A stretch of DNA of 64,000 nucleotides from a virus. Its lineage: Duplodnaviria; Caudoviricetes. Location of the stretch: positions 1-64,000 of the IMG/VR virus record IMGVR_UViG_3300033070_001161; one strand, written 5' to 3'. A program made the translations under genes and the position numbers. Numbering within the stretch: the first letter of the stretch is position 1; each line of letters begins with the position of its first letter. Positions 18,601 to 36,219 of the stretch are shown piece after piece. The notes beneath the pieces were generated by a model. The model saw only the letters and a list, made by a program, of their open reading frames with translations. It did not search any database and had not been told where the DNA came from.

Positions 18601-21600
18601 AGCTTCAAAAAGATGACAATTTCCGTAAAAATGGAAAAGGATTCAAAAAAGCTGGTAAAGAGGTAATCCGTCAGTTGAATATTCTGAGTGGAATGAGAAC
18701 CCTTTTGAGTAGAGAAATAGAAGAACTTACTGCTGAACAGGAGGAAGTTGAATTTAACATATCCTATTTTGAGGATATGGGTCAGAATATTGATGAACTT
18801 CCTACAGATAGCAAAGACTTCATAGAAGAACTTAATAATCAAGTGCTTGATCTTCAGATACTTTATGAAGAAACAGGCAAACAAATCAATTACTTATCAG
18901 GCGTATTAAGTAAGGTGGAAGATGCGTTGAAAACAGCAGTTGATTTTGCTCTCAATCTTATTCAAAAATTTGAGAAAAAATATCCCGGATTACCCATAGC
19001 ACCTGAAGCCCTTAGAAGTTTCTTAAATAAAGACTTGGAATTTAAAGGAACATGGCCTGATTATCAATCATATCTTACTGCCAATCCTAATCTTCTTTCT
19101 GATCTCAGGGAGTTTGATAGGGAACTTGCAGATATTGATGATCTGGATGTTATTCCTAATGAGCGTTCAGTAAAAGAACTTCAAGATAATATTGCTGATC
19201 TTAATAAACAACTTGCACAATATGAAAAGGAAATAAAAGCAAAGTCTGCAATTCTTGATAAATTTGAGGATATTGCAAAAGAATATAAACGCAAGGAAGA
19301 AGCTAAGCGTCAATATGAAAAAGATAAAGCTCTTCACGATGCTTTGTTCAAAGCACAATCTCAATTATCTGAGCAACCTTCAGATGATAGTACAGATGAT
19401 GAGCTTGCTAAAATAGAAACAAAAGATAAAGAGGCTTCTAAAAAGAAAGACCTTTCTATCTATCCTATTTCTACAATAGCACCATCAAGGGAAACTGATC
19501 CTGAATTTGAGAATAAACCTCATCTTTTAAGAGAGGAGAAATTTTTAAATAATTATGCTGCTGGTCTTCTTAAAGATGAAAATGGTAATGATATTACCCC
19601 TGATTTAAGAGTGCTTGTTATACATAGAAATAATCAAGCAAAATATGGACTTGACGGACTTGTAGAATTACGTAATCCCAAACAAGCCGATGAATCAGAA
19701 GAAGCATACGATAAAAGACTTACAAATGCTGAAAGTGGAACAATTCTTTATTTATACATAAAGAAAGGGGAAGGAGAATGGGAAGTAATAGATGAAAATG
19801 GTAAGAAAATAGGAAGCTTTGATAATGAGTTTAATCCTTCAGGAATTGATATAAATAAGGTGGTAACATCTACAGCTCCAGCAGCTAAAATATCACTTAA
19901 AGCAGGATCATTTACTAATAAAGATAACCTTAATTTAGCTGAAGTTGAAAAAGCTTGGCTTGAAAAAAGAAAACAATTATTAGAAGAGGGTGATTTACTC
20001 ACTGTATCAGGAGTATCTCGTGGTGTAAAACAAGTAACAAGTACATCCGATAAGAATCCTATTACCCCTACTCTTACAGATTCAAAAACAGTTGATAAAC
20101 AGCAAGTTATATTTGTATCTACTTCGGATGTAATTAATACGCCTAATGATACTATTTATTATAAAGCAGGTAGACCTTATTTCCAAATAGGAGATAATGT
20201 TATTCTTTTAAATAATAGAAATATTAATGAAAAAGAAGCAGATGCTATATTCTTAGTATTAAAAGAAGTAGCTACTAAATTCCAAGAATCAATCAAAGCA
20301 AATCGTCCTAATCTGGATAAGCAATTAGTTGATTGGTTAAATTCTATAATCTATTGGTATAGCCCATCTGAGAAAAATCCTACAGCACATAATCATCAGA
20401 TTTATGTAAAATCTGGTAAATTATTCATATCCGGCGTAGACACTGGTATATATTTTAATCCTGATAGCTTAGATGCTAATAGGAAACCTATTATCGAAAC
20501 ATTCCTTAAAGGAAATACCGCAGGACGGGGTACATATCACCATGTATCTCATAAAAACTTATCTTCAGATCAACCCTATATTGAGTACTACACTGAAGAT
20601 GGTAAAACCTTAAAAACCAGAGAGCATAAATCATATCAGCATTATCTCATTGCTAATAACGTAGTGTCTACAAACGTAAGACCTCAAATGAGCGATACGG
20701 ATAGCAACATTCGTGGTAGATATGCTATCACTGATATGGAACTCTCTCTTCCTAAAGAGGATGTTAAACCTCCCAAAGTTGAAAAAAAGGAAGAAGTAGT
20801 ACAATCCTCTGGAAAACCTGATAAACTTGCCGAAGCATTAGCTGTGCTTGCTGCAAATAAAGCTAAAAGACAAGCTAAAAAAGAAGGTGCTGCTGCTGAA
20901 GAAAAAGAAGAAAAATCAATAGTTCCATCTAAAGCCAATAGATTGAAATCTACAGATACAGTGTCTGTAAGTATAAAAGCTGCCGATCTTCTTGCAAAAT
21001 TAAATGGTAAGGGATTTGTAGGAACTGATAGTAATGATGAAGAATATAGAAGAGTTGTAGAAAAAAGTATAGATAATGTAAAAAAAGAAGATATTGCTGC
21101 TGTAAAAGCGTGGTTTGCTAAAAATCTTCCAAATGTACCTCTCAATATTGTAGAACATATCCTCAAAACTACAGATGGTGGTTTTGCTTGGGGTAAGTTT
21201 TCAAGTGTGGGTGTTACAATGTATGAAAAAGCAAAAGAGGGTACAGGATACCATGAAGCATTTGAAGCAGTATGGAAAATGTTTATACCTGTTGAAGATA
21301 AGCAGAAGATAGTATCTGAAATGAGACGCAGAAAAGGCTCATTCTATGATGCTATCACTGGTCAAAATACGGAATATAAATCAGCTACAGATACACAATT
21401 AAAGGAAAAACTGGCAGATGAATTTGCAGAATATGTGCAAACAAACGGTGCTATTTCTGAAAAAATAAAAGGTCAACCTTGGATAATCAGAATATTCAGG
21501 GCTTTAAAAGAACTTTTTGAAAAACTTGTTTCTCCACAAAACAATATAGATCAATTATTTAGGAATATAAATAGTGGTCAGTATGCTACAAAACCAGTTA

Positions 21601-24600
21601 ATCTGGAATCAGTGGTGGGGGATGAATACAGTAGGGTGGCAGATTTATCGCATCAGCTTACAAAAGAACTTATGGAAGACATTACATCAAAGATTTTGAA
21701 TAATTTCTTTGGTGCTAATGCTACATTATCTTTAGCTAATTTATCAGATAATAAGGAAATACCATTAGATGCCTATTACGATGCTATCAAACCTATGTTA
21801 GCTAATAAATTTGTATCAATTGGTAAACAAGCCCTCACTGAAGGTGATGAAGAACTTGCTCTTAATTTTTTAAGTATTGCTGATAATATCACCGATAATT
21901 GGGATGATGTTGTAAAATTAAATAAAGAATATTTAAAAACATTTGGTCTTACAAGCAGTCATGAACAGGCATCTGATAATCTTCCTGAAAAGGTGAAAGA
22001 AGCAAAACAGGCTGAATTTGAAGATGATAATGATGGTATTCAAGATGATGATGAACCTGAATTTGAACAGGAGAATAAATCTCAATTAGAATATGATAGG
22101 GATATATTTACAATTTCTGGTAAGAAAAACGCTTCTGCCGGAATAAGGTTATTATTTGCTACACTTAGGGATGCTAAATTTATTCGTCAGTCTAAAGATG
22201 ATGTGTCCGTAGTTCCAGCTATAGAATTTGAAAGATCATCACTTAATGGATTCAAATTTGTGCAATATGCAAGAGTATTCAATCAAGTAGCAAACGCATT
22301 AGTTAATACTAATAAGATGGAAAATCTTATTAAAAAGCTTGTCAACCATGCTAAAACAAATGCTCCTATTGTAGACCTTTTAAGTCCTAATAAATTAAAT
22401 ATAAATAGAACAACAGGTAAAATAAATTACAATTCATTATCATATAATGAATGGAGAATACTCTTGGATTTTGTAAAAACCATGAGTAAACAATCCCCTA
22501 ATGCCCTCATATATGATATGAAAGGTAATACAGCCAAGCTTATTCCGGGTAATAAATATTCAGGAATTGAGCAAATTAAGAGGAATTTTGTAAAGAATGT
22601 AAAAAATAACAAAGAGTTATTCTCTTTTGATAAAAAGAAAAAGACATTTGTTGTCAATCCTGAATTCTTTAAAAAGAACCCAACACCAACCAATGACAAA
22701 GCATATATAGATTTTGCAAATTCTATAGGTATTAAAACTGTAGACGGTGAATTATTATCGTTGGCTATGTTAAAAGCTATGCCTTTATTTCAAAAAGCAA
22801 AATTCAAAAGTGCTTTATCTAGGGTGTATACTCAATTAAAAAAACAAGACCCTTTATTTGATACATCAAATAAGGCATTACAGATTGAAACTCCTCTGAA
22901 TGAAATAAGTATTGCTATCATTTCCGCAACAAAAGATGACGGTTCTAACACCTTCTTAAACGTACTGAGAAAACCAGTACAGTCAGTGGTGTTGAATAAC
23001 CCCCTGTCTACTTTCTTTAATAATTTCAATTCTGTTTCCTCTCTCGATAATCTGCAAAAAGAGGAGCAAGGACTTACTGATGGGTTTTCTAAAAACTCAG
23101 TGATATTACAAAGAGGTGGTAGATTCTTTAACGAAGATGGTGATCGTACAGATGAGAAGATTGAAGTGGGATATATTGACGGTATAAAAACTCCAAGAAA
23201 CTCTAAACAATCTTCTAAATTATCCCTTATTCAAAGAAGACTCCTTTCTTTCAACCTTAATTTACAAGGTTGGTTTGTTCCTATCACAAATGGTGATAAG
23301 AAAACAGAATGGATACTATCTTTAGGTAATCATATATCTTTCAACCAAGTGGTTGCTGGAACTCACTGGGATTCAATATATTCTATATTTCATAACTATC
23401 TGAAAACAGAAATGGAAGTAGCACAAGTAGACGATGCTAACACATTAGCTGTTCTGGATAAACAAAAAAGGCGTGGAAATCTGAGGTTTTTCCTCAATAT
23501 TCTTCCTGAAAATATTACAAAAAAAGCAAAAGTTGTAATAGATAATCTCGGAGATATTGATGAATTTATTGAAGAAAATGAGAAAAATATCAACAGTGCA
23601 ATACGTAAATTCTTAGAAAAAGAAGCTAGTAGAACACGTACAGAGTTCCAGATATATAATATATTAGCAGTAGATGACAACGGAAATTATATATTTGATG
23701 GAATTGATGAAAAATTCGTAATGGATAACATCAATGATCAGGGTGTAAATAAATTTAGTGAAGAGCAGGTTGATAATGTAATTCTCTATAGAACTGTTAA
23801 TCAGGTGATTAACAATATAGAAATGCATAAACTTGTTATTGGCGACCCTGCATTTATGTCTGATCCTGCAAAACGTATTCCCGGAGCAATGGGTGGTGTA
23901 AATCAGACTACATATGGATCACATGAATTTAATACGCATTTTTCAGCATTAGCAAATAGAACTGATGTTAATTCTAGCTCAATACAATTAGAACCTACTG
24001 ATTTAGGATACACTCCTTTCTCAGATGATGTTTCTATTGTAATATATCAAGATGTTATCGTAGAAGGTAGGGTAGAAGGTAGTGACTATAAGAACACAAA
24101 TGAAGTGGATGGTGGTTCAAAAATGAACCTTTCTGCATATAGAGAATTGAAAATAAGATCAGCAGAATGGACCGATGAACAGGAAAAACAATATCAATAT
24201 CAAATGGCATTCTTCAGAGATAGAATGTCAAAACAGGGAAAATATGACTATTCTTCAAAAGAATTAAAAGAACATGACGTTAACCTTTTAAAACAAGGTC
24301 AGCCTCAAGAAGGTATTTTTGAAATTATCAAACCTAAAGGATGGGGTCAGAATACAGCATCTCCATATAAAGATATAGTGTTCCTGAAAACATCAGCTCA
24401 ACCTATTATCCCTACTGTAGCAAAAGATACAAACGATGAACTTCTTCTTCTGAAAATGATGAATGAAGGTATAAAAATTGCAGCTTTTGAATCAGCAGTA
24501 AAAGTAGGGGTACGTAGCACTGAAGCAGCATATGTAGATGGTAAGTTTAATGAAAATAAATACAACCCCGATGCAATACTCTATCCTTCTTGGAAAGATT

Positions 24601-27600
24601 TAGGTATTCAGGTAGAAACCCAATTCTCTCAAGGTAAGAATAAACTGACATTAGGTAGTCAGCTTACAACACTCGCTACACTTAACCTGTTATCTGGTGG
24701 TGTACCACAAGGATTTACAGCTACAGAATGGAGCAAACTTTCTGAAGAAGAAAGAATGGCAAAATCTGAAATATACAGAGAGGTAGTTACAAATAATCAG
24801 ATTCTTGTAGAACTTACAAATAATGGATATGTAGAACTTCTCGATAAATTAGGAATAGAAGAAGATGAAGATGGAAATTATGAAATAGTTGATTATCAAC
24901 GAGTTGTAGATTTCCTTAAAGAACAGGCTCGTGACATGGATGATAATACAAAAGCTGCTCTTAAAGTGGACGATGTATTAAATTCATTAGCCGTACCTCT
25001 TGAGGCTATCCCTACATATACTCAATTGAAAGCAATTCTTTATTCTATTGTAGATAAAAACATAGCATCTCCTAAAACATCAGGTATTGGTTTAGTGCAG
25101 ATGCCGTCTACATTTACAGAAAATGAAGCGAGAACTACGCTTGTCGGTAATTCCACTTATAAATTCTATACAAAAGAAGAGCCTTGGATTGAGGTAAGTT
25201 TACCCGCATGGTTTAGAGATCATCTTGAGAGATTTTATATTAATAATAAAAAACCCATTCCTTCAGAAGAAGAGCTGCTCAAATTATTGAATGATACTGA
25301 TATATTAAATGGTATAGGTTTCCGTATCCCCACTCAGGAAATGAACTCTGTAGAGGTGTTTAAAATTAAGAGTTTTCTTCCTAAAGTGATGGGTAACACT
25401 ATTATTGTACCTTCAGAAATCACCACAAAAGCGGGTAGTGACTTTGACATTGATAAACTGAATGCGTATCTTAAAAATGTTATAATTACCAAAACGGGTA
25501 AAATATCCAAAGTAGCATCATTTAATTCTCAGGAAGAAGCCGCTGATCATTTTGGAAGTGAATATGAAAATACTATTCAGAAGGAAATCAATAAAATTGA
25601 AAAATATGAAGATTTCCGTGAAACTCTTTTAGCTGTATTCAATGCAATAGAAAATATCAAGGGTGATATTACCTTAGATAAAATCAAAAAAGCACTCAAT
25701 GAAAACCTTAAAGAATTCTATGATGTGCATATGACTCTTCTTAATGAAATTATAGATCAAGCTGCTGAAGAACAATTAAATCCTTCAGAATATATTCAGA
25801 ATCAGATAGATAGGCTTTCCCGTAAAAAAGGAAAACTTAATGCTAAGTTATTTAATGAACTGGCTAAAGAGATGTATATTAAAAAATATACAAGAAAATC
25901 TCTTGAAAACGCATACTACGAATCCCTCGAAAGGCTTGTTCAGCTTCCTGAAAACTTTGAAAGGTTGATACAAATCAACACTACAAAAAATCTTGAAGAA
26001 ATTAAGAATAACCTTAATAAGGCATTATTCACTGAGGATGAAATTAAACAAAATAACATCAATACAGGTGAAAAACTTGCATTGAACTATCTTCCTATTA
26101 TCTCACCTTACACTCTGGATGAAATCAGGCATAATCTGGTTACAGGTAAGGATGGTGTTGGTATTGCTGCTGCTGCTCAAAAGAGCAACTCAATTATGCA
26201 ACGTACTCAGGTAGTGATTGATCCAAGTAGAGTGAATCTCCTTGACGATATTGATCCATTAAGAACACAATTAATAGGTGATGGTGTTATACGTTTTCCT
26301 CATAATAAAATTAATGGAAAACCCACCATATCAATGTCTAAAACAGCAGATGGTAAAAAATATATTTCAGATATTATCTCTGAGTATATTAACGGATTTG
26401 TGGACGTTGTAAAGAATACATTCATTATTGAAATGGGTGTTACCACTCGTACAGCAGGTACGTTCTTATTTATGGATAGACTTGGTAATAACACTGAACA
26501 TACCACCTATTTTATGAACCAACCTATTATCAGGCAATATTTAAAATTTCTTGATAAAAACAAGATAAATGGTATTAGACATAAAGAAAGTATAGGTGAA
26601 ATTTACTCTACTTGGGGTGATGTTAAGTATACAGGAAACGACACGCTTCCTACAGCTAATCAATTACTGGATAATATTAAAGAATATAAAGGAAAAAATA
26701 GGGATTTTAAGAATTTATCTCCTGAATTTGTAGAAGAGCAATCTAAAATATTTAATGAATTCCTGAAATATCAGGAGATGGCATCTGATTTATTTACCCT
26801 TATGCAGGGTATAAATTGGGATACAGCCCACATGTCTGATCCTGAACAATTCCTTCTGAAGGATATTAATTACGATAAGGCAAACAACACCATATTCACT
26901 CCTGCTTCAGAGATATTGAAGAATGTATTTATTGGAAATACACGCCAAAAATTGATGGATTCTAGGAATGCAATAGGTGGTTTTATAGCCATAGAACATC
27001 CTAATGTACGTGAAGTGCTAGATACATTAAAGCGTAAGTTCATTAGTATGAGCTTCTTCCCCAAGCCTGATGTATATAGTGCTATTGCTAAACGTATAAA
27101 TAACTCCTTTTTAAACTATATCTTACAGGTAAAAGGTGGATATAACAGAACTCAGATTGAGCAAGTTCTTTTGGATGAGCAAAATGGAGCAGCTTCACTA
27201 CTTGAAGATTTACAAATTGCCACTAAAAAAGATTCTGTTTTACATTCAATTCTGAAGCAATTCTCCATTGAAAGAAGAGGTAATGATGCTAATAGTGTAA
27301 AAGCTATTATATTCAAGAAAAGTGGTAATGATAAATACGACAGAGATACTGATATTGACAATTTCAGAATTTTAAAAGAAAACGCATACACTCAGGAATT
27401 ATATAAAAAACTGGTCAGGGCAGCTCTTTTACAATCTGGTGTACAGTATTCTCCTATTTCATATTCACATTTAATACCTTCTGAAGACTATGCAAAAGCA
27501 CTATCTAGTCTTGTGAATAATCTGTCTACATACACCGATCTGGATAAATTCCTCACATCTAAATCATTTGCTAGAAACAACTGGAGTAATTCAGATGTAG

Positions 27601-28721
27601 CTAAACCGTTGACAATCAGTGAGAAAATGAAGGGTGTATCAGATATGGGTACAGTGTGGGCTATTCCGTTTATTCTTCCTAAACAACTTTCTAAGTTCCC
27701 TAAAGGATCAATAATGAAATCAAGAATGTTCTTAGGAGAATATGCTAAGTATCAACCACTTAACTCAATGGGTAGAGAAATGGCTTTTGTGCCCGATCTT
27801 ACATATATGATAAATAAAAAGGATGCGTTTGAGAAAAACAATCCTATTTTAACAAAAACATATCTCTACGAAATTGTCAAAGACGAAATGGGTAAACCTC
27901 TTACAATTACAGAAAATTACAAAAATAAACAAGATGAAGAGGTACAAAGTGTAAGTTATCTGTATAAAGCAATCAATGCTTGGGGAGATGGTATGTATGC
28001 ACAAGAGTATTATGATGCTGAACGTTCTTCACAAATTGAAAATAATACATTCAAAGTGGATGAAACAGTAGTAAATGATACAGCTATTTATACAGCATTA
28101 CGTGGAAAATCTGTATCTTTGCAAAGTAAAAAAGAAATTAAAACAGAGCTTATAGAATCTTCTAATAAAGTAATAGAAGGAGATATCTTTAGTATAAAAG
28201 GAATTCCTGTTATTACCACTAATTTAGGAGGTGTTCATGGGGCAGGATTAGCGCAAAAAGCTAAAAGTAAAGGTCTTATCAAGCAAGGAGATGGTTTATT
28301 TAAAGCAAATAATAACGTTGTTCAACTTCCTGTAAAAAAAATATGGAGTGATAATATGGCAATGAACAACAATATGAAACTACTTGCAGAAAGTCTTAAT
28401 AAATTAGTAAAAGTAGCAAATGAAAATAAAAATAATACGTATTTATTACCACTCGCTGGACTAGGGCATGGTGAAGGAAAAGTCAGTGAAATAATGCCAC
28501 TTTTAATTTCAACGTTACAAGCTTCTGAAAATATTAAATTAATATTACCTACAGAAGATATTTCTTTAGGTAGACAAGCTACTGTAAGAAAAGATGAAAC
28601 TAGAAAAAAACTACCTGAAATAAAAACAATGTTAGAAAAAGCAGGATTTATTAAAAGTAATAAGATAAATACTTCTGATAATAAATCAACTCAGGATAAA
28701 ATAAACGACTGTTTAGGATAA
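15630..28721 (+). CDS. Giant virion-packaged multidomain RNA polymerase (crAss-like, double-psi beta-barrel) with zincin-like and C-terminal macrodomain
   Basis: 4363 aa; GFRIPTQ followed by GSDFDIDKL catalytic motif (DFDID at 25440-25454); YHEAFE...EKLADEF at 21252; macrodomain at 28170-28550; N-terminal Gly/Ala-rich hydrophobic helices. Confidence 0.9.
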   Translation: MPEDQLPNINSPLEDKLASIQNDWTKSQFSGNGNSKGGDPTSTLLKKMNGVMSAKESYSTPDIVSPNIIDVSGRYPKQLVGWDNEDLYGDAQSGWSQAWRGIVKGVALAGTTFLQGTLGLVYGLGAAAGTLELNKLFNNDFSNAIDDFNKMLENQYLQNYYTKRERDAKWYEPANLFSTNFIFDKFVKNLGFSIGAIYSGAAVAKALRMIPAISSLFTGEKAAATLAQIESKLSTVPALQRTDEMYNMLIKASDAATKAAKFGSGVERTVIGTLGAVTEGGIEALQGLNEYRNSLIDNYIATNGVAPVGDELDKINDLSSSLGNSRFLLNIGLLSATNYIMLPKILGSSYKTSKSLANKEINNIVKNQEGKWVSALSQAPRVEKFIRKSTNVAELFFSPTEGFEELSQYAIERGVNDYYSKAYKGEGRSFANSMLAGYDQAINSNEGMEQFLIGALSGGMQQAGIVGTYQNEKGQTKVGIGKSGNIGERGITGTGGERGRNTTSFLAQMNDPKNQMRFKSDTWVKDMVDATARGINLQKEGEAFIRQGDVLEAKDNEADYMHNYLAVRIKHGRYDLVQDDIENFRQQAASPEGLNMLKQQGYANENDTQQTFLARVNNFEKHAKNIDSLYQSLNMVYGAKINQDGQRVYSDEVIDKMVYVGSKIADYEQRIPELSQQLLSNQIVLGDTLSNIYKNGVPSADAVKDAIKQIDDLSVIDSKKDELKQSLRDVIELTGRRKEFLDEFKKLKTSPESFTTVTEPTTTTATTDKKKIKLKTKDGEEELEVGTEYFAGSQVIESKEGVVYEKFPRFTIIGENEDGSVKIKTSNGDILDVKKDAFSKYKFGKVSDTEKHPNAMFYVEASDTIFTFNMGKKDKNPRGRLSYDPKTDKLYFITLDGKKTIAVTRDQFSPKKGYSIAQIYSSDKLTPKAEEALKQEVNLSEIQEKREARLKIISELREAAYDRLDKLTDKISQKKEQLEGVEKNLKELEEKLQKDDNFRKNGKGFKKAGKEVIRQLNILSGMRTLLSREIEELTAEQEEVEFNISYFEDMGQNIDELPTDSKDFIEELNNQVLDLQILYEETGKQINYLSGVLSKVEDALKTAVDFALNLIQKFEKKYPGLPIAPEALRSFLNKDLEFKGTWPDYQSYLTANPNLLSDLREFDRELADIDDLDVIPNERSVKELQDNIADLNKQLAQYEKEIKAKSAILDKFEDIAKEYKRKEEAKRQYEKDKALHDALFKAQSQLSEQPSDDSTDDELAKIETKDKEASKKKDLSIYPISTIAPSRETDPEFENKPHLLREEKFLNNYAAGLLKDENGNDITPDLRVLVIHRNNQAKYGLDGLVELRNPKQADESEEAYDKRLTNAESGTILYLYIKKGEGEWEVIDENGKKIGSFDNEFNPSGIDINKVVTSTAPAAKISLKAGSFTNKDNLNLAEVEKAWLEKRKQLLEEGDLLTVSGVSRGVKQVTSTSDKNPITPTLTDSKTVDKQQVIFVSTSDVINTPNDTIYYKAGRPYFQIGDNVILLNNRNINEKEADAIFLVLKEVATKFQESIKANRPNLDKQLVDWLNSIIYWYSPSEKNPTAHNHQIYVKSGKLFISGVDTGIYFNPDSLDANRKPIIETFLKGNTAGRGTYHHVSHKNLSSDQPYIEYYTEDGKTLKTREHKSYQHYLIANNVVSTNVRPQMSDTDSNIRGRYAITDMELSLPKEDVKPPKVEKKEEVVQSSGKPDKLAEALAVLAANKAKRQAKKEGAAAEEKEEKSIVPSKANRLKSTDTVSVSIKAADLLAKLNGKGFVGTDSNDEEYRRVVEKSIDNVKKEDIAAVKAWFAKNLPNVPLNIVEHILKTTDGGFAWGKFSSVGVTMYEKAKEGTGYHEAFEAVWKMFIPVEDKQKIVSEMRRRKGSFYDAITGQNTEYKSATDTQLKEKLADEFAEYVQTNGAISEKIKGQPWIIRIFRALKELFEKLVSPQNNIDQLFRNINSGQYATKPVNLESVVGDEYSRVADLSHQLTKELMEDITSKILNNFFGANATLSLANLSDNKEIPLDAYYDAIKPMLANKFVSIGKQALTEGDEELALNFLSIADNITDNWDDVVKLNKEYLKTFGLTSSHEQASDNLPEKVKEAKQAEFEDDNDGIQDDDEPEFEQENKSQLEYDRDIFTISGKKNASAGIRLLFATLRDAKFIRQSKDDVSVVPAIEFERSSLNGFKFVQYARVFNQVANALVNTNKMENLIKKLVNHAKTNAPIVDLLSPNKLNINRTTGKINYNSLSYNEWRILLDFVKTMSKQSPNALIYDMKGNTAKLIPGNKYSGIEQIKRNFVKNVKNNKELFSFDKKKKTFVVNPEFFKKNPTPTNDKAYIDFANSIGIKTVDGELLSLAMLKAMPLFQKAKFKSALSRVYTQLKKQDPLFDTSNKALQIETPLNEISIAIISATKDDGSNTFLNVLRKPVQSVVLNNPLSTFFNNFNSVSSLDNLQKEEQGLTDGFSKNSVILQRGGRFFNEDGDRTDEKIEVGYIDGIKTPRNSKQSSKLSLIQRRLLSFNLNLQGWFVPITNGDKKTEWILSLGNHISFNQVVAGTHWDSIYSIFHNYLKTEMEVAQVDDANTLAVLDKQKRRGNLRFFLNILPENITKKAKVVIDNLGDIDEFIEENEKNINSAIRKFLEKEASRTRTEFQIYNILAVDDNGNYIFDGIDEKFVMDNINDQGVNKFSEEQVDNVILYRTVNQVINNIEMHKLVIGDPAFMSDPAKRIPGAMGGVNQTTYGSHEFNTHFSALANRTDVNSSSIQLEPTDLGYTPFSDDVSIVIYQDVIVEGRVEGSDYKNTNEVDGGSKMNLSAYRELKIRSAEWTDEQEKQYQYQMAFFRDRMSKQGKYDYSSKELKEHDVNLLKQGQPQEGIFEIIKPKGWGQNTASPYKDIVFLKTSAQPIIPTVAKDTNDELLLLKMMNEGIKIAAFESAVKVGVRSTEAAYVDGKFNENKYNPDAILYPSWKDLGIQVETQFSQGKNKLTLGSQLTTLATLNLLSGGVPQGFTATEWSKLSEEERMAKSEIYREVVTNNQILVELTNNGYVELLDKLGIEEDEDGNYEIVDYQRVVDFLKEQARDMDDNTKAALKVDDVLNSLAVPLEAIPTYTQLKAILYSIVDKNIASPKTSGIGLVQMPSTFTENEARTTLVGNSTYKFYTKEEPWIEVSLPAWFRDHLERFYINNKKPIPSEEELLKLLNDTDILNGIGFRIPTQEMNSVEVFKIKSFLPKVMGNTIIVPSEITTKAGSDFDIDKLNAYLKNVIITKTGKISKVASFNSQEEAADHFGSEYENTIQKEINKIEKYEDFRETLLAVFNAIENIKGDITLDKIKKALNENLKEFYDVHMTLLNEIIDQAAEEQLNPSEYIQNQIDRLSRKKGKLNAKLFNELAKEMYIKKYTRKSLENAYYESLERLVQLPENFERLIQINTTKNLEEIKNNLNKALFTEDEIKQNNINTGEKLALNYLPIISPYTLDEIRHNLVTGKDGVGIAAAAQKSNSIMQRTQVVIDPSRVNLLDDIDPLRTQLIGDGVIRFPHNKINGKPTISMSKTADGKKYISDIISEYINGFVDVVKNTFIIEMGVTTRTAGTFLFMDRLGNNTEHTTYFMNQPIIRQYLKFLDKNKINGIRHKESIGEIYSTWGDVKYTGNDTLPTANQLLDNIKEYKGKNRDFKNLSPEFVEEQSKIFNEFLKYQEMASDLFTLMQGINWDTAHMSDPEQFLLKDINYDKANNTIFTPASEILKNVFIGNTRQKLMDSRNAIGGFIAIEHPNVREVLDTLKRKFISMSFFPKPDVYSAIAKRINNSFLNYILQVKGGYNRTQIEQVLLDEQNGAASLLEDLQIATKKDSVLHSILKQFSIERRGNDANSVKAIIFKKSGNDKYDRDTDIDNFRILKENAYTQELYKKLVRAALLQSGVQYSPISYSHLIPSEDYAKALSSLVNNLSTYTDLDKFLTSKSFARNNWSNSDVAKPLTISEKMKGVSDMGTVWAIPFILPKQLSKFPKGSIMKSRMFLGEYAKYQPLNSMGREMAFVPDLTYMINKKDAFEKNNPILTKTYLYEIVKDEMGKPLTITENYKNKQDEEVQSVSYLYKAINAWGDGMYAQEYYDAERSSQIENNTFKVDETVVNDTAIYTALRGKSVSLQSKKEIKTELIESSNKVIEGDIFSIKGIPVITTNLGGVHGAGLAQKAKSKGLIKQGDGLFKANNNVVQLPVKKIWSDNMAMNNNMKLLAESLNKLVKVANENKNNTYLLPLAGLGHGEGKVSEIMPLLISTLQASENIKLILPTEDISLGRQATVRKDETRKKLPEIKTMLEKAGFIKSNKINTSDNKSTQDKINDCLG

Positions 28722-28736
28722 AACAATAAAATAATT

Positions 28737-29426
28737 ATGGCCTGTCCCAATATAAACTCTCCTCAGTGGAAGGATTTAGTAAGTAAAATAGGTGTATTTG
28801 AAGCAATGAGAGAATTCATCAAAAATGGTGAAGAAATCCCAGATGCTGCAAATTATCAAGAAACATTTTCAGGTATTAATGCTACGTTAAAAGTAGTAGG
28901 AGCACTCCAGAAAATGACAAGAAACTCGTATCCTTCCAATCAGGTACAAGGATTTTATAATGACTTGATAAAATTAGGTACACCTAAGAATCAATTAGAT
29001 TTATTAAAAGACCATATAGAAAGGAATAATATAAAACAAATCAATGTTAATGATTTGATTGTCAGTATTTTATCTGAAATGAACTACACAATTGAAATTA
29101 ATACTGCTACAACAAGTTTAAAAAGAGATTATGATGAGGGATATGAATTTTCTGAAGAAGAGTTAATGAGAGGTCCACAATCAGAAGATTTATTAAAAAA
29201 ACCAAGACCAACTACATATTATGCTAATTTAACTGTACCGGGAGGTACTAATTATACAGAAAATGAAATAGCTACACCAGCTATTGTTCCTTCTATTAAA
29301 GGACATGCTCAATTTTCTACAGATAATGGTATTGGATGGTTTCGTTCAGATGACAAACATCCCTTTACAGGATTTTTAGAAGATTTAATTGCTTCGGGAA
29401 CAATAAAAAAAGCACCTTGCGAATAA
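28737..29426 (+). CDS. N-terminal fragment of a split RNAP-cluster cargo protein
   Basis: Starts MACPNINSPQW; ends in the first half of a polyvalent-protein-type domain (VPGGTNYTENEI...GHAQF...GWFRSD) plus a tail ending APCE. Confidence 0.7.
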   Translation: MACPNINSPQWKDLVSKIGVFEAMREFIKNGEEIPDAANYQETFSGINATLKVVGALQKMTRNSYPSNQVQGFYNDLIKLGTPKNQLDLLKDHIERNNIKQINVNDLIVSILSEMNYTIEINTATTSLKRDYDEGYEFSEEELMRGPQSEDLLKKPRPTTYYANLTVPGGTNYTENEIATPAIVPSIKGHAQFSTDNGIGWFRSDDKHPFTGFLEDLIASGTIKKAPCE

Positions 29427-29911
29427 TGAAAACAGGAATATATAAAATAGAAAATAAAATAAATGGTAAATTTTATATAGGAAGTGCTGTACATTTCTAT
29501 AATAGAAAATCTGACCATTTTAGAAGATTAAGATTAGGTATTCATAAAAATACTCATCTTCAAAATTCTTATAATAAATACGGCAAAGAAATTTTTACAA
29601 TGTTTTTAATAGAAGAATGTATTAAAGAAGATTTACCTATAAAAGAACAATATTATATTGATACTTTAAAGCCTGAATATAATATTTGTTTAAAAGTAGA
29701 AGGAAGATGGGGTTTAAATCATACAGAAGAAGTTAAATCTAAAATTTCAGATTCTGTAAAAAAGTTTCATAGAGAAGTTGGACATTCTGAAGAGACTAAA
29801 AGTAAAATTGCTAATGCCTTAAAAGGTAGAAAACAATCTTCAGAAACTATTGAAAAACGTAGACAAGCTAATATTAAAGCTTGGGAACTTAAAAAATTAA
29901 ACAATAATTAA
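29426..29911 (+). mobile_element. Free-standing GIY-YIG homing endonuclease with NUMOD3-like repeats
   Basis: GIYKIENKINGKFYIGS, E...ID...PEYN, H[TS]EE[TV]KSKI repeats; probable start is the TAATG overlap at 29426 (ORF track starts at 29417). Confidence 0.9.
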
Positions 29912-29913
29912 CT

Positions 29914-32900
29914 ATGGCTTGTTACGAATATAAAGGTGTAAAATATACCGAAGAAGATTTAGTAAAATTATTACAATCCCAGCAACTAAAAACAAGACGC
30001 ATTTTGGAGCTCCAGTCAGATTTATTTCAGAAAGGTAGGGATGAAAAAAAAGCACTTGCTTGGAATAGATATATTTTAGATAATAAAGGTGATGTTATAG
30101 GAGAAAATCCCAATTTTCAATCAGAACAAGATTTTTTAAATTTACTTAGAAAAGACAATAACTGGGTAACATTCTTTGTTAAATCTATTATACAAGATAG
30201 TGCTAAAAAAGGATATGAAAAAGTGTTATTTCCTTCTGGAAATACAGCTAGTAAAGTAGAAGGTCATACTACTTTAGAAGAATTTAAGAAACAGAAAGAA
30301 AATAGGATTAAAAAACTTGAAAAACAAAGACTGGCTTTAGAAGATGAAGCAGAAAACAATACCGCTGTAGATTCTGATGGTGGTGAATATGATTATACAG
30401 AGGAATTTGAGAATATTGACACCGAGATTTATCAACTTAAACAAGAACTTAAAAGAATAGAAGAGGAGGGCTTTGGTGCATTATTACCTATTTTCAAATT
30501 TTATGAAGAAACAGTAACCAATGTACTCAAAAAACAAGGATACAATCCTACTCAAATCACTGATGAATATGGTAATACATGGAATGAAGTAGAAATAAAT
30601 GAACTTGCAAATAACACTATATTATTTCAAAAACAGGGAATAAAACAATCTAAAGCATCTGCAAAAACGATAGCTAAGGTAAAAGAATTCCTTAAAAGAA
30701 TAGGCGTAGACATACAAGCCCTCGATACAGAACGATATGGAGGTATTAATGGTGTTGCCAATTTCTTAGAAGGATTCATACAACTTGCAGAGGGTAAAGA
30801 AGATGTTGCTATCACTGAAGAAGCAATGCACTTTCTTGTAGAAATATTAGAACTTACCAATCCTACATTATTCAAACAAATGATGAATAAGATAGGTAAG
30901 TATAACGTATTCTCAAAAGTAATGAAATTATATTCACAAGACTCTGAATATCAAACAGATGGAAAACCTGATATTCTTAAGCTTAAAAAAGAAGCTATAG
31001 GTAAACTCCTTGCTGAATATTATATACAGTCTGAAGATGGTCAATCTGAAGCTCCTGATTTGATGATTCAAACAAAATCATGGTGGGAGCAGATCATTGA
31101 CGCTATTAAGAAATTCCTGAAAATTGCAGATTTTAATCCTTTCCAAGAAGCATTAGATAGTTTTAATGACTTAAATAACACAAATTCACCTACAAAAATA
31201 TTAGCTAAAAGGATATTAGATAGTTTGTCAGATGACAATATGTTTAAAAAAGCCATTAAAGATACATACGATAATGGTGATTATAAAGCTGTAGTAACAA
31301 CCTTCTATCAACAACTTACAGATAAGTCAGTATTTGGTATGAGTCCTTATGAATCCACTGTAAAAATGCTTGGTGGAAATGAAGAATTGGCTAAAGATAT
31401 TATATCTTTAGGTAATCCTTTTTATCAATTATCTGAAGAAAAAAGAAAAAAACAGCAAGAAATTGCAAATTCTTTCGATCAAAAACTTAAAGATTTTGAG
31501 ATAAGGAAAGTGACAGGTAAAGCTGAATTTGAAGAGCAAGATGATATAAACTACTATGAGCGTAAAAGAGATGGTAAGATAGGTAAGGTGGCAAAGCGTG
31601 TAACGGATTTTGTTAAAGAAACAAAACGTCCCGATGTTCTTGCAAAATTTGAAAATGCTTCAGCCAAAGAAAAGAATACATATAAACAAAAAGCAGAATA
31701 TGGTACAGCATTTCACAATGATGCTGAATCAATTATAAAAGCATCCCTCACTTCTGATGGATATTTAAAACCTATTGATCAGATTAATGTAGATGCTATC
31801 ACTCCAAATCTTCCTCAAGCTGGATTTTTGGCATTAAAGAACTATCTAGTTGGTGAAATAGACAATGAGGGTAATATCATTCCGGGTATATTATATACAC
31901 AATTTCCAACAGGAACTCTCTTCAAAGTCGAGCAAATTATCTACGATGAAAAAAGAGACGTTGCTGGAACAATTGATCTTATGGGTATCACTCCCGAAGG
32001 TAAGATAATGATATATGATTGGAAAACCAAATTCCTTGATACAAAGAAATTTGACGATGTTCCTTTCTATTCTCAGGCGGATTATAGAATACAGCTTGCT
32101 CAGTATAAAGCAATGATGTATAGATATGGATTAAAACCTAAAGAGGACGTTATTGTAGCTCAGGCAATTCCTATCGTATATAAAGGTAAGATAGACTCTT
32201 TAAATGGGGATGTCACCCTTACAGATATAATATTTCCAGAAATAGATATAAAACAAGAAACTAGACGTTACCTTCTTCCTGTACCTATTGCTGAACAATC
32301 TTCAGGAAATACAAAAGTAGACCAATATATTGATGCACTTAACCAATTATATCAGGTTTTGTACAAACAAAAAGATGTAAATAAAGAGCTTAAAAATGAG
32401 CAATTAAATGCAATTTCTGGTGCAATTCGTGAATTACAGGTGAAACAAGAATTTGGTCCTCTTGCAGAACAAGGACTTATTTTCTTAAAAAGTGCAGAAC
32501 GTGTTATAGAAGATATAAACACTCAACTGAAAAATGAAGATGGTACTTATAAGGAAATTGATCCTAAACAAGTAGATGAGTATTCAAAAAAACTGAAACT
32601 TATAAACGACAATATCCACAAATATCAGTCTACTTATCAGTTATTCGATGAATTATATGGCGATAAAAATCTTACAGAATATCAGCAGGAAACCTATAAT
32701 AAATTAGAAAGATTATCATTGGATAGTGGTAAGATTGCATCTAAAATTAATACGGAATATATAAATTTTGTTAAGCAATATTATACGTCAAAAGAAGGAC
32801 TTGATATATTAAAGACAGAAAAACCAATTCAAGGTTTACTGGATAGGTCTATTCAAAGCTTATCTCGAATGCAAAATGTTGCTCTCCAATATCTTAGGAG

Positions 32901-35484
32901 TGTTACAGCTAGAGCAAACTTTCAAAAGCAAAGAGATGCAATAAAAAGACAGGAAGAACTTAGAAAATTACTAGATGCTTTCAAAAAAACAGCTCAGGCT
33001 AGAGGATTATCTCCTACAAAATATTTTACACTCCTTGTCAGTAAGAACAAGAAAGGTGATCCTATGAACCAACTTATTAAAAAAATTAAGACTGAGTTCT
33101 ATACAGAATTTGAAAAAGCAACAAAAGACGAACCTGATATAAACTGGATAAAACAAAATATAGACCTTGATAAGTATATTGAGGATAAAGAAAAAGTTAT
33201 TCAGAAAATGTTTGATCAGATTGATGCTAGTATATATAGTTCTAATTCTAAAGAGGACGCTAAACGCAAAGAGGAAAAGAAAGAAGATATTATCAAAATG
33301 TATTCTTTCGACACTCCAAATGCGTTAGGGTGGTATAGGCAAGACCTCAAATATTATATAAAGGATGAGAGTAAATGGGAAACAGATGAATATAAACAAA
33401 TGTCTAAGGATAAATCTATTTTAGACTTATACGATTTTATCATAAAGCTCAATAAGGAAGCTAAAGATATGGGATATCATGATGACAAAACATCGTTGAG
33501 ATTTCTCCCTTGGATGAGAGCCTCTATGCTCGACAGAATACGTACTTCTGGACTGTCAGCAATAGGCGATAGCATGGAATATCTATATAAACTTACTCCT
33601 GAAGAAGAAATCAGCTATTCTAAGGTTGATCCTAACACTGGAACAATTGAGAAATCTATTCCTGCATTTTTTACAAAAAACTTTGCTCCTGAAATAAGAG
33701 ATGCTGATGGAAACATAGAAGGATATGATTTATCAGATGTATCTACAGATTTAGGAGAAACCCTACCTATGTATATAGAAGCTTTATATGAATTTAAATC
33801 TTTATCAGATATTGAACAATCTGTAAAAGCTGTACGTGACGTAGAAGCCGCTAAAAAAGCGTTCCTTTTAGATGAAAAGGGTAGAATTGTTAAGGAAAAA
33901 GGAACAAATATAAACAAATTAGCTAATGATAATGAGGCAAATGTAAAACTCTATGATAGTTTTGTAGAGGCTATTTTATATAAAAGAACATATGATAGTA
34001 CAGCAAATCTGTCTACAGGGGCTACAAAAACCATCGAAAAAATGAACCAATACTTCAGATTGAAGGTGTTTGGTTTAAACATATTTACTCCAATCACCAC
34101 ATTTATTGGTGGTAATTTACAAGCTCTTATAAATTCAAGAAAGCTTTGGAGAGGACAGCAATTTTTAAAAAATGAAATGAAAATTGTCGGTAATCTGTTT
34201 AAAGGGGAAGAAGGTAATATAGAAAAAGGACTTATTGATTACTTTATACCTTTTACTGAAAATAGGGCAAAACTGAATGCGGAAAGAATGTCTTTTGAGA
34301 AAATTCAAAGATTTTCATTTTCTGATTTCATCATGGCTCCTATTAGAAAGACGGATATAATGGTACAAATGGCTACATCTCTTACAATGCTTGAAAATAC
34401 AGTGTTGATTGATGGTGAATTAGTAAATGCTCGTGAATATATCCTTAACAGTAAAGAATATAGAGATCGCTATAAAGACTCATCTCAGTTAAAATCTTTA
34501 GAAAAAGACTTTGAAAAGAAAGTTAAAGAACTCGTTGATTCTAAAGGAGTTATGAAGTTTGCTAAGTTTAATAAGGACGGTCTTCTTGAAATAGAAGGAG
34601 TGTCAAGAGATTCTGATACTGTTAATAGATTGAGGCTCAGGATGTTAGATGAAATTAAAAATCTTACAGGTAACTTAACAGAAGAAGACAAACGAGATGC
34701 AGATAGAAACATTCTCCTCAAATCAATGATGATGTTTAAAAACTGGATTCCTAGACTTGCTGCTGTAAGATTTGGAGATTTACAGAAAAATATTGATGCT
34801 AACCAATATGAAATGGGTAGGGTGAGAATGGTATATCAAGTGATCAAAAATGGAGACGGGGGGTGGATAAAAGGACTTACTAATGGTATACGTGATCTTA
34901 GAAATATGGTGGCAGGTAATGAGGAAGGTCTTAAAGTCCTTGCAAAATACTATGAACGTACTGCTGAAAGTTATAAAAATAAGACAGGAAATGATCTAGA
35001 AATGACTCCCGAAGAATTCTATGATATGACTCGTAGGGCTATAGAACAAACAGCAAAAGATGCTGCTCTTTTAGCTACATTTATGACTATGTTTATTTAT
35101 GCAAAATCAACACCACCCGATGATGATGATAGTGATGAAAATAAGAATTTTTATAAAATTTCTGTAAGAATGCTGGATAAACTGACAGATGAGATTTCAT
35201 TCTATTATAATCCTCTTTCATTACAACAGATTTCTACAGGTTCTTGGATGCCGTCTATAGGTATATTAACAGACGGTATTAAGTTTTCAGGAAGTCTTAT
35301 AAAAGAGGTGGGTGGACGTACATTTGGTGTAGAAAAATGGGAAGAAACTGCACATCCCACTAAGAATTTTTTAAATATGATCCCTATAGCTAATCAGTTT
35401 TTTAAGACATTTATACCAGTTATTAACCCTGATATAGCTAAAGATTTGGATATACGAGTATCTACAGAATCTCGTAGAAACTAA
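29914..35484 (+). CDS. Large RNAP-cluster cargo protein (C-terminal part of the split gene) with zincin-like and PD-(D/E)xK nuclease domains
   Basis: 1856 aa; MACYEYKG head then KTRRILELQSD; EEAMH at 30817; GTAFH...E...AGTIDL...IYDWKT...QLAQY at about 31700-32120. Confidence 0.75.
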   Translation: MACYEYKGVKYTEEDLVKLLQSQQLKTRRILELQSDLFQKGRDEKKALAWNRYILDNKGDVIGENPNFQSEQDFLNLLRKDNNWVTFFVKSIIQDSAKKGYEKVLFPSGNTASKVEGHTTLEEFKKQKENRIKKLEKQRLALEDEAENNTAVDSDGGEYDYTEEFENIDTEIYQLKQELKRIEEEGFGALLPIFKFYEETVTNVLKKQGYNPTQITDEYGNTWNEVEINELANNTILFQKQGIKQSKASAKTIAKVKEFLKRIGVDIQALDTERYGGINGVANFLEGFIQLAEGKEDVAITEEAMHFLVEILELTNPTLFKQMMNKIGKYNVFSKVMKLYSQDSEYQTDGKPDILKLKKEAIGKLLAEYYIQSEDGQSEAPDLMIQTKSWWEQIIDAIKKFLKIADFNPFQEALDSFNDLNNTNSPTKILAKRILDSLSDDNMFKKAIKDTYDNGDYKAVVTTFYQQLTDKSVFGMSPYESTVKMLGGNEELAKDIISLGNPFYQLSEEKRKKQQEIANSFDQKLKDFEIRKVTGKAEFEEQDDINYYERKRDGKIGKVAKRVTDFVKETKRPDVLAKFENASAKEKNTYKQKAEYGTAFHNDAESIIKASLTSDGYLKPIDQINVDAITPNLPQAGFLALKNYLVGEIDNEGNIIPGILYTQFPTGTLFKVEQIIYDEKRDVAGTIDLMGITPEGKIMIYDWKTKFLDTKKFDDVPFYSQADYRIQLAQYKAMMYRYGLKPKEDVIVAQAIPIVYKGKIDSLNGDVTLTDIIFPEIDIKQETRRYLLPVPIAEQSSGNTKVDQYIDALNQLYQVLYKQKDVNKELKNEQLNAISGAIRELQVKQEFGPLAEQGLIFLKSAERVIEDINTQLKNEDGTYKEIDPKQVDEYSKKLKLINDNIHKYQSTYQLFDELYGDKNLTEYQQETYNKLERLSLDSGKIASKINTEYINFVKQYYTSKEGLDILKTEKPIQGLLDRSIQSLSRMQNVALQYLRSVTARANFQKQRDAIKRQEELRKLLDAFKKTAQARGLSPTKYFTLLVSKNKKGDPMNQLIKKIKTEFYTEFEKATKDEPDINWIKQNIDLDKYIEDKEKVIQKMFDQIDASIYSSNSKEDAKRKEEKKEDIIKMYSFDTPNALGWYRQDLKYYIKDESKWETDEYKQMSKDKSILDLYDFIIKLNKEAKDMGYHDDKTSLRFLPWMRASMLDRIRTSGLSAIGDSMEYLYKLTPEEEISYSKVDPNTGTIEKSIPAFFTKNFAPEIRDADGNIEGYDLSDVSTDLGETLPMYIEALYEFKSLSDIEQSVKAVRDVEAAKKAFLLDEKGRIVKEKGTNINKLANDNEANVKLYDSFVEAILYKRTYDSTANLSTGATKTIEKMNQYFRLKVFGLNIFTPITTFIGGNLQALINSRKLWRGQQFLKNEMKIVGNLFKGEEGNIEKGLIDYFIPFTENRAKLNAERMSFEKIQRFSFSDFIMAPIRKTDIMVQMATSLTMLENTVLIDGELVNAREYILNSKEYRDRYKDSSQLKSLEKDFEKKVKELVDSKGVMKFAKFNKDGLLEIEGVSRDSDTVNRLRLRMLDEIKNLTGNLTEEDKRDADRNILLKSMMMFKNWIPRLAAVRFGDLQKNIDANQYEMGRVRMVYQVIKNGDGGWIKGLTNGIRDLRNMVAGNEEGLKVLAKYYERTAESYKNKTGNDLEMTPEEFYDMTRRAIEQTAKDAALLATFMTMFIYAKSTPPDDDDSDENKNFYKISVRMLDKLTDEISFYYNPLSLQQISTGSWMPSIGILTDGIKFSGSLIKEVGGRTFGVEKWEETAHPTKNFLNMIPIANQFFKTFIPVINPDIAKDLDIRVSTESRRN

Positions 35485-35550: not shown

Positions 35551-36219
35551 ATGGTAAATAAAATTATTTACAAAACAGGACAAAAATTAGGCAATTTAGA
35601 ATATATCTCTGAAGTAGATGCTCATGTTCGTCCCAACGGAGGAACTAGAAGAAAAGCCATATTTAGATGCAATTGTGGGAAAGAATTTATATGTTTAATT
35701 GAAAGTATTAAGTATGGAAATACTACATCTTGCGGATGTTTAGTAAATCGAAAAGGCGGTAAAACCACACATGGACATACAACTAAGGTAAATAATCTAA
35801 GAACTACAGAATTTATTATATGGCAGGGTATGATTGCAAGATGTGGTGGTTATAAAACAGGTAGAAAGTATAAACGTTATGCTGCTAGGGGAATAAATGT
35901 ATGTGAGAAGTGGTTAAATTCTTTTGATGATTTTTTAAAGGATATGGGGTTTAGACCTAGTAAAAATCATAGCTTAGATAGGATAGATAATAATGGAAAT
36001 TATTGTCCAGAGAACTGTAGATGGGCAACAATAAAAGAACAAAATAGGAATAAATCTACTAACAGATTAGTTACTTTTAATGGTAAAACTCAATGTATTT
36101 CGGATTGGGCAGAAGAAATAGGTATAAATAGAGCTACATTATATGATAGAATTGAAAATTGGCCAATAGAAAAGGCATTGACAACTCCATTAATGAGAAA
36201 AAATAAAAATATCGCATGA
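35551..36219 (+). mobile_element. Free-standing HNH-type homing endonuclease
   Basis: CNCG...TTSCGC zinc motif, YAARGINVCEKW, SLDRIDNNGNYCPENCRWAT..EQNRN, C-terminal HTH. Confidence 0.85.

Follow-up and report, generated by a model that had tools for sequence, protein, structure and literature searches.

A stretch of 64,000 nucleotides of a crAss-like phage (IMG/VR record IMGVR_UViG_3300033070_001161, positions 1 to 64,000; hereafter the window, that is, the whole stretch of DNA that was analyzed) contains a gene that is continuous in relatives and is divided in two here by a free-standing GIY-YIG homing endonuclease gene. The host gene, which encodes a crAss-like virion protein and lies directly after the virion RNA polymerase gene, now consists of two open reading frames (ORFs); the endonuclease cassette sits at the position of a hypervariable linker of the unsplit relatives, between the motifs GIGWFRSDD and KTRRILEVQSDLFQKGR. 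A short C-terminal tail on the first half and a short N-terminal head on the second half come with the endonuclease; the mobile unit consists of tail-coding DNA, endonuclease gene and head-coding DNA, and moves in this form between distantly related phages. The overall explanation that we favor, and regard as fairly probable, combines insertion of this cassette, origin of its tail and head from a native gene junction, and docking of the tail on the head, which would keep the two halves as a unit.

Three consecutive plus-strand ORFs, each in a different frame, span positions 28737 to 35484. ORF A (28737-29426, 229 amino acids (aa)) comprises the upstream half of the split protein (28737..29354), with a MACPNINSP head at its N-terminus and a conserved core ending PGGTNYTENEI..GHAQFSTDNGIGWFRSDD; the final GIGWFRSDD motif (last Asp codon at 29352-29354) is followed by the cassette-borne tail, KHPFTGFLEDLIASGTIKKAPCE, of 23 aa (29355..29426 with the TAA stop; tail codons 29355-29423), which can be read as a helix, a Ser-Gly turn, a short strand and a penultimate Cys. 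The ATG of the endonuclease gene (29426..29911, plus strand, 161 aa) overlaps the stop of ORF A as TAATG, and its own stop is at 29909-29911. ORF B (29914-35484, 1856 aa) begins 2 bases later with the 25-aa head, MACYEYKGVKYTEEDLVKLLQSQQL (29914..29988), continues into KTRRILELQSDLFQKG, and carries the downstream half of the split protein (29989..35484, starting KTRRILELQSDLFQKGR), with a weak PD-(D/E)XK match at residues 588-751; the head, which can be read as Met-Ala-Cys, a beta-hairpin and a helix, directly precedes the motif KTRRILELQSD. Heads of this kind are found at N-termini only, and the tail is missing from the continuous homologues. Comparison with 80 IMG/VR and 80 metagenome loci places the end of ORF A homology at residue 206-207; ORF B homology begins at residue 26. 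These limits coincide with the tail and head boundaries drawn in a preceding sequence-only reading of this DNA, and the ORF ends, tail, endonuclease and head that it quoted are all present where it put them.

The middle gene has the attributes of a free-standing homing endonuclease, namely a catalytic domain, a separate DNA-binding module, its own start and stop, presence/absence polymorphism and location in a high-identity DNA island. The GIY-YIG domain (PF01541, 1.1e-8) covers residues 3-86, with the GIY, YIG, Arg, Glu and Asn positions of the catalytic domain visible; the DNA-binding module NUMOD3 (PF07460, 6e-7) covers residues 120-136, the C-terminal helix-turn-helix is absent from this short protein, and there is a match to PHROG 314 (homing endonuclease, 2e-32). 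Among the relatives of this endonuclease in IMG/VR, none beyond the contig of locus L005 is flanked by a tail and head of the window type; GIY-YIG genes are therefore not accompanied by this module in general. A second GIY-YIG gene is present in the same genome outside the window (L158; G000:C1:73474-73836, minus strand), in the replication module; it is 41% identical to the first (E 6e-18), and its adjoining ORFs lack the Cys-tail/Cys-head pattern.

The gene is split exactly at the endonuclease position and is continuous in relatives, as the sequence-only reading had maintained. In 63 of the 80 IMG/VR loci, the A homology shares one stop-free frame with the B homology up to residue 225 of the latter or beyond; 68 of the 80 metagenome-contig loci are continuous across both motifs, and of the 130 protein representatives (of clusters at 50% identity) that carry the first motif, 98 continue into the second. 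Tails were found on 28 of the cluster representatives. A GIY-YIG gene occupies the gap in all 14 loci that are split between the two motifs (the viral contigs L005, L006, L014, L074, L079 and L152, seven metagenome loci and the window). Loci that are split at this point but lack an endonuclease, which the sequence-only reading had named as a refutation, do not occur among them. Placement of both motifs in one continuous domain elsewhere, another point of the sequence-only reading, is borne out; its label of a polyvalent-protein domain has no backing in databases, given that no Pfam, PHROG or PDB family covers the split domain in family and PDB sequence searches. A tblastn search with both halves against GenBank phages produced no match.

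In the unsplit proteins, the linker between the motifs varies from 2 aa (L076: ..GWFRSDDKYGSKTRRVLE..) to about 230 aa, and conservation in the protein is highest in the motifs on either side of it (invariant alignment columns). Several unsplit relatives (L001:6630-7320, L024, L033, L040 and L065) carry a P-loop domain of about 150-230 aa inserted in this linker, with the sequence GHPTIGKSYL..DDDYANEV or, in L065, GTSGSGKSTF; the site is a hot spot for insertions in general, not for endonucleases alone. The AlphaFold2 model of the unsplit homologue L003 (549 aa, 50-row alignment) has a mean pLDDT of 69, with values below 50 over residues 153-266, the motif region, and a Foldseek search with this model against PDB returned nothing at E <= 0.001. 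The most conserved stretch, PGGTNYTENEI..GIGWFRSD..RRILEVQSDLFQKGR (L003:6457-6798), is the one that AlphaFold2 modeled worst (pLDDT 30-46).

Comparison of the window with L005 delimits a DNA island (29315..29950, plus strand) with 90-100% sliding identity that includes the end of the first motif, the tail, the endonuclease and the first 12 or so codons of the head. Upstream of 29195 the identity is 33-57%, rising to 77-83% at 29195-29344, where the conserved motif lies; downstream of the island, it is 65% at 29945-30034 and below 50% from 30005 to about 30130, followed by short conserved patches. The endonucleases of the two loci are 92.5% identical, and the host halves only 58% and 43%. This pattern indicates that the island is a recently transferred or co-converted unit, and the unique extensions on both new termini, which the intact homologues lack, lie inside it, as described for genes in pieces; the claim that tail and head arrive with the endonuclease therefore stands. 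The closest relatives of the window are unsplit (L001/L002, 81% identical for A, and L003, which equals L160), and the window forms a supported clade of three with its closest unsplit relatives (SH-aLRT 96). In the tree of the A core, a quick maximum-likelihood search with many weak branches, the 12 split rows among 118 require 12 state changes, at least 5 of which are forced by well-supported branches. Nearly the same tail and head surround a different GIY-YIG lineage in L006, L014 and L164, and the tail DNA is near-identical in the window, L005, L006, L014 and L164.

Tails and heads of this type occur at three positions of the protein: site 1 lies between the two motifs, site 2 just after QSD.FQK.R (L018, L033, L040, L063 and L078) and site 3 near residue 95 of B (L016). 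At all three, the gap holds a GIY-YIG gene. The tails follow a common pattern, with an amphipathic stretch, [SG]G, x-L-x-I-x, Cys, 0-1 residues and the stop, and so do the heads, with M-[AGSK]-C, a Tyr/Lys-rich hairpin (..YKG..Y..) and an acidic helix (..EEF..). The only invariant positions in 15 aligned pairs are the tail Cys and the head Met1 and Cys3 (15/15 each); Tyr6 of the head is conserved in at least 90% of the 15, and the stop follows the tail Cys within 0-1 residue in every aligned tail. In the collected proteins, tail-like motifs are solely C-terminal and head-like motifs solely N-terminal, never internal and never fused. The ratio of nonsynonymous to synonymous differences (pN/pS; Nei-Gojobori, tail/head family of the window, with pairs that are related and not independent) is 0.24 for the tail and for the head, with pS of 0.14 in the tail and 0.39 in the head. 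Both parts are thus under purifying selection. Taken together, these observations mark the tail and the head as a real module, not debris.

Some variants of the elements bearing such heads deserve mention. At site 3 of L059 (2297-4297) and L040 (8389-10740), an ORF of 667-784 aa (MYKNI[KN]VEAEHNELILENS..) is flanked on one side by a piece that lacks a Cys-tail (..GLVIPKN, then stop) and on the other by one bearing a hairpin-type head (M[AS].CIYKYKGKDYT..). Two IMGVR_UViG_3300045988 contigs (L148:3549-3580 and L154:10818-10945) have MACKYIYKGK.. heads on ORFs cut short by translation table 11, with an in-frame stop after 10 codons in L148 (MACKYIYKGK, stop, FNSE..) and an ORF end after 42 codons in L154; the neighboring ORFs are short as well, and these phages may have a reassigned stop codon.

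A Cys-tail and a Cys-head also face each other where there is no endonuclease. At the junction between the polymerase gene and ORF A (28710..28760, plus strand), the polymerase-type protein ends ..DKINDCLG, and its stop is followed after 15 nt by MACPNINSPQW. Nearly all related loci have a Cys within the last few residues upstream of this junction and a Cys at position 3-5 downstream; in L006, L038, L043 and L153, the post-polymerase junction has a hairpin-type head, as at the split sites. Among 94 distinct junctions, both Cys are present in 50, neither in 32, and 12 are discordant, mostly due to calling artefacts (Fisher p 3e-13, from related sequences). The arrangement extends to the human-gut crassvirus cr108_1, where the same junction reads ..NLCK, stop, and then MANVCPNTSSQAW... 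GIY-YIG genes are also found in junctions upstream of the A core (L044, L074 and L079), and some native polymerase tails (..LAEAGTIIKNNKC) resemble, by eye, the site-1 tail of the window (..LIASGTIKKAPC). The sequence-only reading overlooked that this arrangement also exists at endonuclease-free junctions, including that at 28721/28737 in the window; the module therefore probably derives from a native junction and is not an invention of the cassette.

We propose that an endonuclease residing in the intergenic gap between the polymerase gene and the next gene moved into coding sequence, taking the flanking gene ends along; the tail and head would then be the same kind of terminal pair as at the native polymerase junction, and probably were carried from there. 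A history of this kind was put forward for mobE of phage Aeh1, an endonuclease that would have moved from a gene junction into coding sequence together with the ends of its neighbors (Crona et al. 2010, PMC3045599), and is the simplest one for the window cassette. As to function, the tail of the first half would dock on the head of the second half and bring the two invariant cysteines together. The halves would thereby remain associated and enter assembly or packaging as a single unit, which would make the insertion harmless. That tail and head dock in this manner is a proposition toward which we lean slightly; as for a link between the cysteines, both a disulfide within the particle and a shared metal are speculative. 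The structural atlas of crAss001 makes no mention of cysteines (PMC10172136). Tail and head variants come in matched families: ..VPCG tails pair with MACY.Y.G.KYTE heads, and ..I.C. tails with MACKY.YKG..Y..EEF heads. Complex prediction for a 34-aa tail and a 34-aa head with 15-row alignments yielded a score of 0.11 against a mark of 0.32, a result that carries no weight either way. In the AlphaFold2 single-sequence model of a natural 139-aa piece with both ends (L079), a hairpin and helix in the head and a helix and strand in the tail are only a hint, at low confidence (pLDDT 44). A search of the ESM Atlas with the head gave no lead.

Several points weigh against docking. The correspondence of tail families with head families could stem from common descent of the cassette rather than from co-adaptation. 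Heads occur after proteins that lack a Cys-tail, namely at 36216 in the window (after an HNH gene), in L047 and L063, and in the site-3 inserts of L059 and L040, so that the head may function without a tail partner. Both the Fisher test, uncorrected for relatedness, and the pooled pN/pS draw on related sequences. Because pLDDT is below 50 across the motif region of the L003 model, the insertion site is not assignable as a surface loop. Finally, the tails of Aeh1 are dispensable for binding between the halves and needed only for higher-order assembly (PMC3045599).

The same heads without a preceding Cys-tail are an argument for regarding tail and head as independent terminal signals, in which case the cassette would rescue the split by equipping the downstream half, orphaned by the insertion, with an N-terminal signal of its own. 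Under this explanation, which we consider unlikely, each separately translated virion or cargo polypeptide would need its own N- and C-terminal signal (for example, for packaging or ejection), a requirement to which we give the same low credence. The recurrence of N-terminal Cys heads and of the PNIN[SN]P motif on several virion proteins of the window fits such signals, as does the absence of the N-terminal head module from the core domain in fused architectures. However, co-occurrence of the upstream and downstream Cys is strong, with both present in 50 junctions against 12 discordant ones; furthermore, the tail is under purifying selection as well, and every cassette supplies a tail.

Less likely still, the tail and head are neutral passengers co-converted with the endonuclease, and the halves re-associate solely by an affinity intrinsic to the split domain. 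Reassembly without help is common among split proteins, the Aeh1 halves bound each other without the tails, and recent transfer accounts for part of the very low divergence seen in the tail DNA (pS 0.14). The selection data contradict this possibility: pN/pS is equally low in both parts, and the head is synonymously diverged, yet its peptide is kept. Moreover, the Cys and Met residues are invariant, and tails and heads that differ greatly in sequence, at three insertion sites, retain one structural pattern.

Restoration of a continuous protein by RNA splicing, protein splicing or ribosomal bypass, which would come to mind given that endonuclease genes usually reside inside introns or inteins and that T4 MobA travels with a 50-nt bypass element, is highly improbable, because the sequence outside the endonuclease ORF amounts to only 69 + 77 nt, both stretches being under protein-level selection, and because the three ORFs are in three frames, with an invariant start Met of the head and a stop 0-1 residue past the tail Cys. 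The particular candidates were each rejected: for a group I intron, there is no Rfam match at E up to 10 across 28500-30500, and the flanks of 69 and 77 nt evolve as coding sequence; for an intein or split intein, there is no Hint or intein match in Pfam, and the extra peptide totals 48 aa across three frames; for a bypass of the T4 gene 60 type, the gap is 487 nt with a complete gene instead of about 50 non-coding nt, and the downstream ATG is invariant. The sequence-only reading was right in assuming that signatures of splicing, whether of RNA or protein, are missing here.

It had also presented the cassette as a third way to neutralize an insertion besides introns and inteins; that idea is already in print for the NrdA tails of phage Aeh1, where unique tails created by insertion of mobE in nrdA are essential for NrdA-a/NrdA-b and the solution is explicitly set apart from splicing of RNA or protein (Crona et al. 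2010, PMC3045599). In Aeh1 nrdA-a/mobE/nrdA-b (Friedrich et al. 2007; Crona et al. 2010), as in the window, a free-standing endonuclease lies inside a gene that is continuous in relatives. Crona et al. expected such tails to be idiosyncratic and undetectable by similarity (PMC3045599); in contrast, the present ones make up a conserved sequence family in which each side has one invariant Cys, and the module recurs in dozens of genomes, at three or more sites and also at native junctions. The two systems also differ in that the endonuclease of the window is of the GIY-YIG type and that of Aeh1 of the HNH type, and in that the tail and head of the window, known here from sequence alone, display no clear pattern of opposite charges.

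A cassette of T4 gene 39/mobA/gene 60 with a 50-nt ribosomal bypass was reportedly described by Bonocora et al. in 2011. The T4 mobA cassette (bioRxiv 10.1101/2022.08.31.505936) is similar in that an endonuclease moves together with an element that compensates for the harm done by its insertion, a topoisomerase gene being split in two; the T4 element, however, is a recoding signal in RNA or nascent peptide, whereas the window has a terminal peptide pair with an ordinary stop and start. Fractured genes with split inteins (Dassa et al. 2009, cited in PMC3045599) likewise have a free-standing endonuclease gene in the gap, extensions of both termini and junction cysteines. The tail and head of the window are distinct: they total 48 aa, compared to about 130 aa or more for a Hint fold, contain no intein blocks, and have the Cys in the second-to-last position of the tail, unlike the N-intein Cys, which is the first residue. 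Modular polyketide and non-ribosomal peptide synthases possess docking domains, short matched C- and N-terminal modules that order consecutive giant polypeptides. These are a functional analogy only, being unrelated in sequence, not linked to a mobile element and not cysteine-based. What is new in the present case is a conserved, recurrent and apparently portable family of tails and heads with invariant cysteines and a native, endonuclease-free counterpart.

The genomic surroundings of the split gene are those of a virion RNA polymerase cluster of a crAss-like phage, with a G+C content of 32%. This assignment follows from the giant virion RNA polymerase-type protein (15630..28721, plus strand, 4363 aa), in which the 900 aa around a DFDID motif give tblastn matches (E 1e-21 to 1e-23) to putative RNA polymerases from crAss-like phages of Bacteroides, Flavobacterium and Cellulophaga; PDB sequence searches with this protein and with the downstream half of the split protein gave no match. 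A common N-terminal motif is shared by three virion proteins of the window, the giant RNA polymerase protein (MPEDQLPNINSP; 15630-15690), ORF A (MACPNINSP; 28737-28780) and a tailspike-like 941-aa protein (MTCNTMPNINNP; 36216-36260), and may be a common signal, for example, for packaging. Another free-standing endonuclease, of the HNH type (35551-36219; PHROG 374, 1e-56), separates ORF B from the tailspike-like gene; the product of the latter starts MTC.., and ORF B has no C-terminal Cys. In the uncultured phage cr108_1 (MT774385.1; L146:15366-15655), the RNA polymerase gene is annotated as two coding sequences, with the break inside the catalytic motif (..AKAGSD, stop, then LYDIDK..) and about 290 nt of non-coding DNA in between, resembling an intron in the DFDID motif.

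A broader scenario, which we regard as doubtful, is that Crassvirales virion proteins of the RNA polymerase cluster are joined tail to head through a dedicated terminal module pair, with the invariant cysteines as a covalent or metal bridge that would make the pieces act as one chain in packaging and ejection, and that GIY-YIG endonucleases captured this pair as a portable "fission kit" with which they colonize many coding sites without an intron or intein. Aeh1 NrdA is the only case studied at the bench in which tails supplied by an endonuclease rescue a split gene. A recognizable tail family, which occurs at several sites, with several endonuclease lineages and in dozens of genomes, and has a native counterpart extending to a gut crassvirus, turns this one-off into a testable general mechanism by which free-standing endonucleases can enter coding sequence. 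As a split-protein tool, a small self-associating pair of peptides would be of practical use. For the crAss-like phages themselves, the finding points to an undescribed way in which their giant ejected proteins may be linked.

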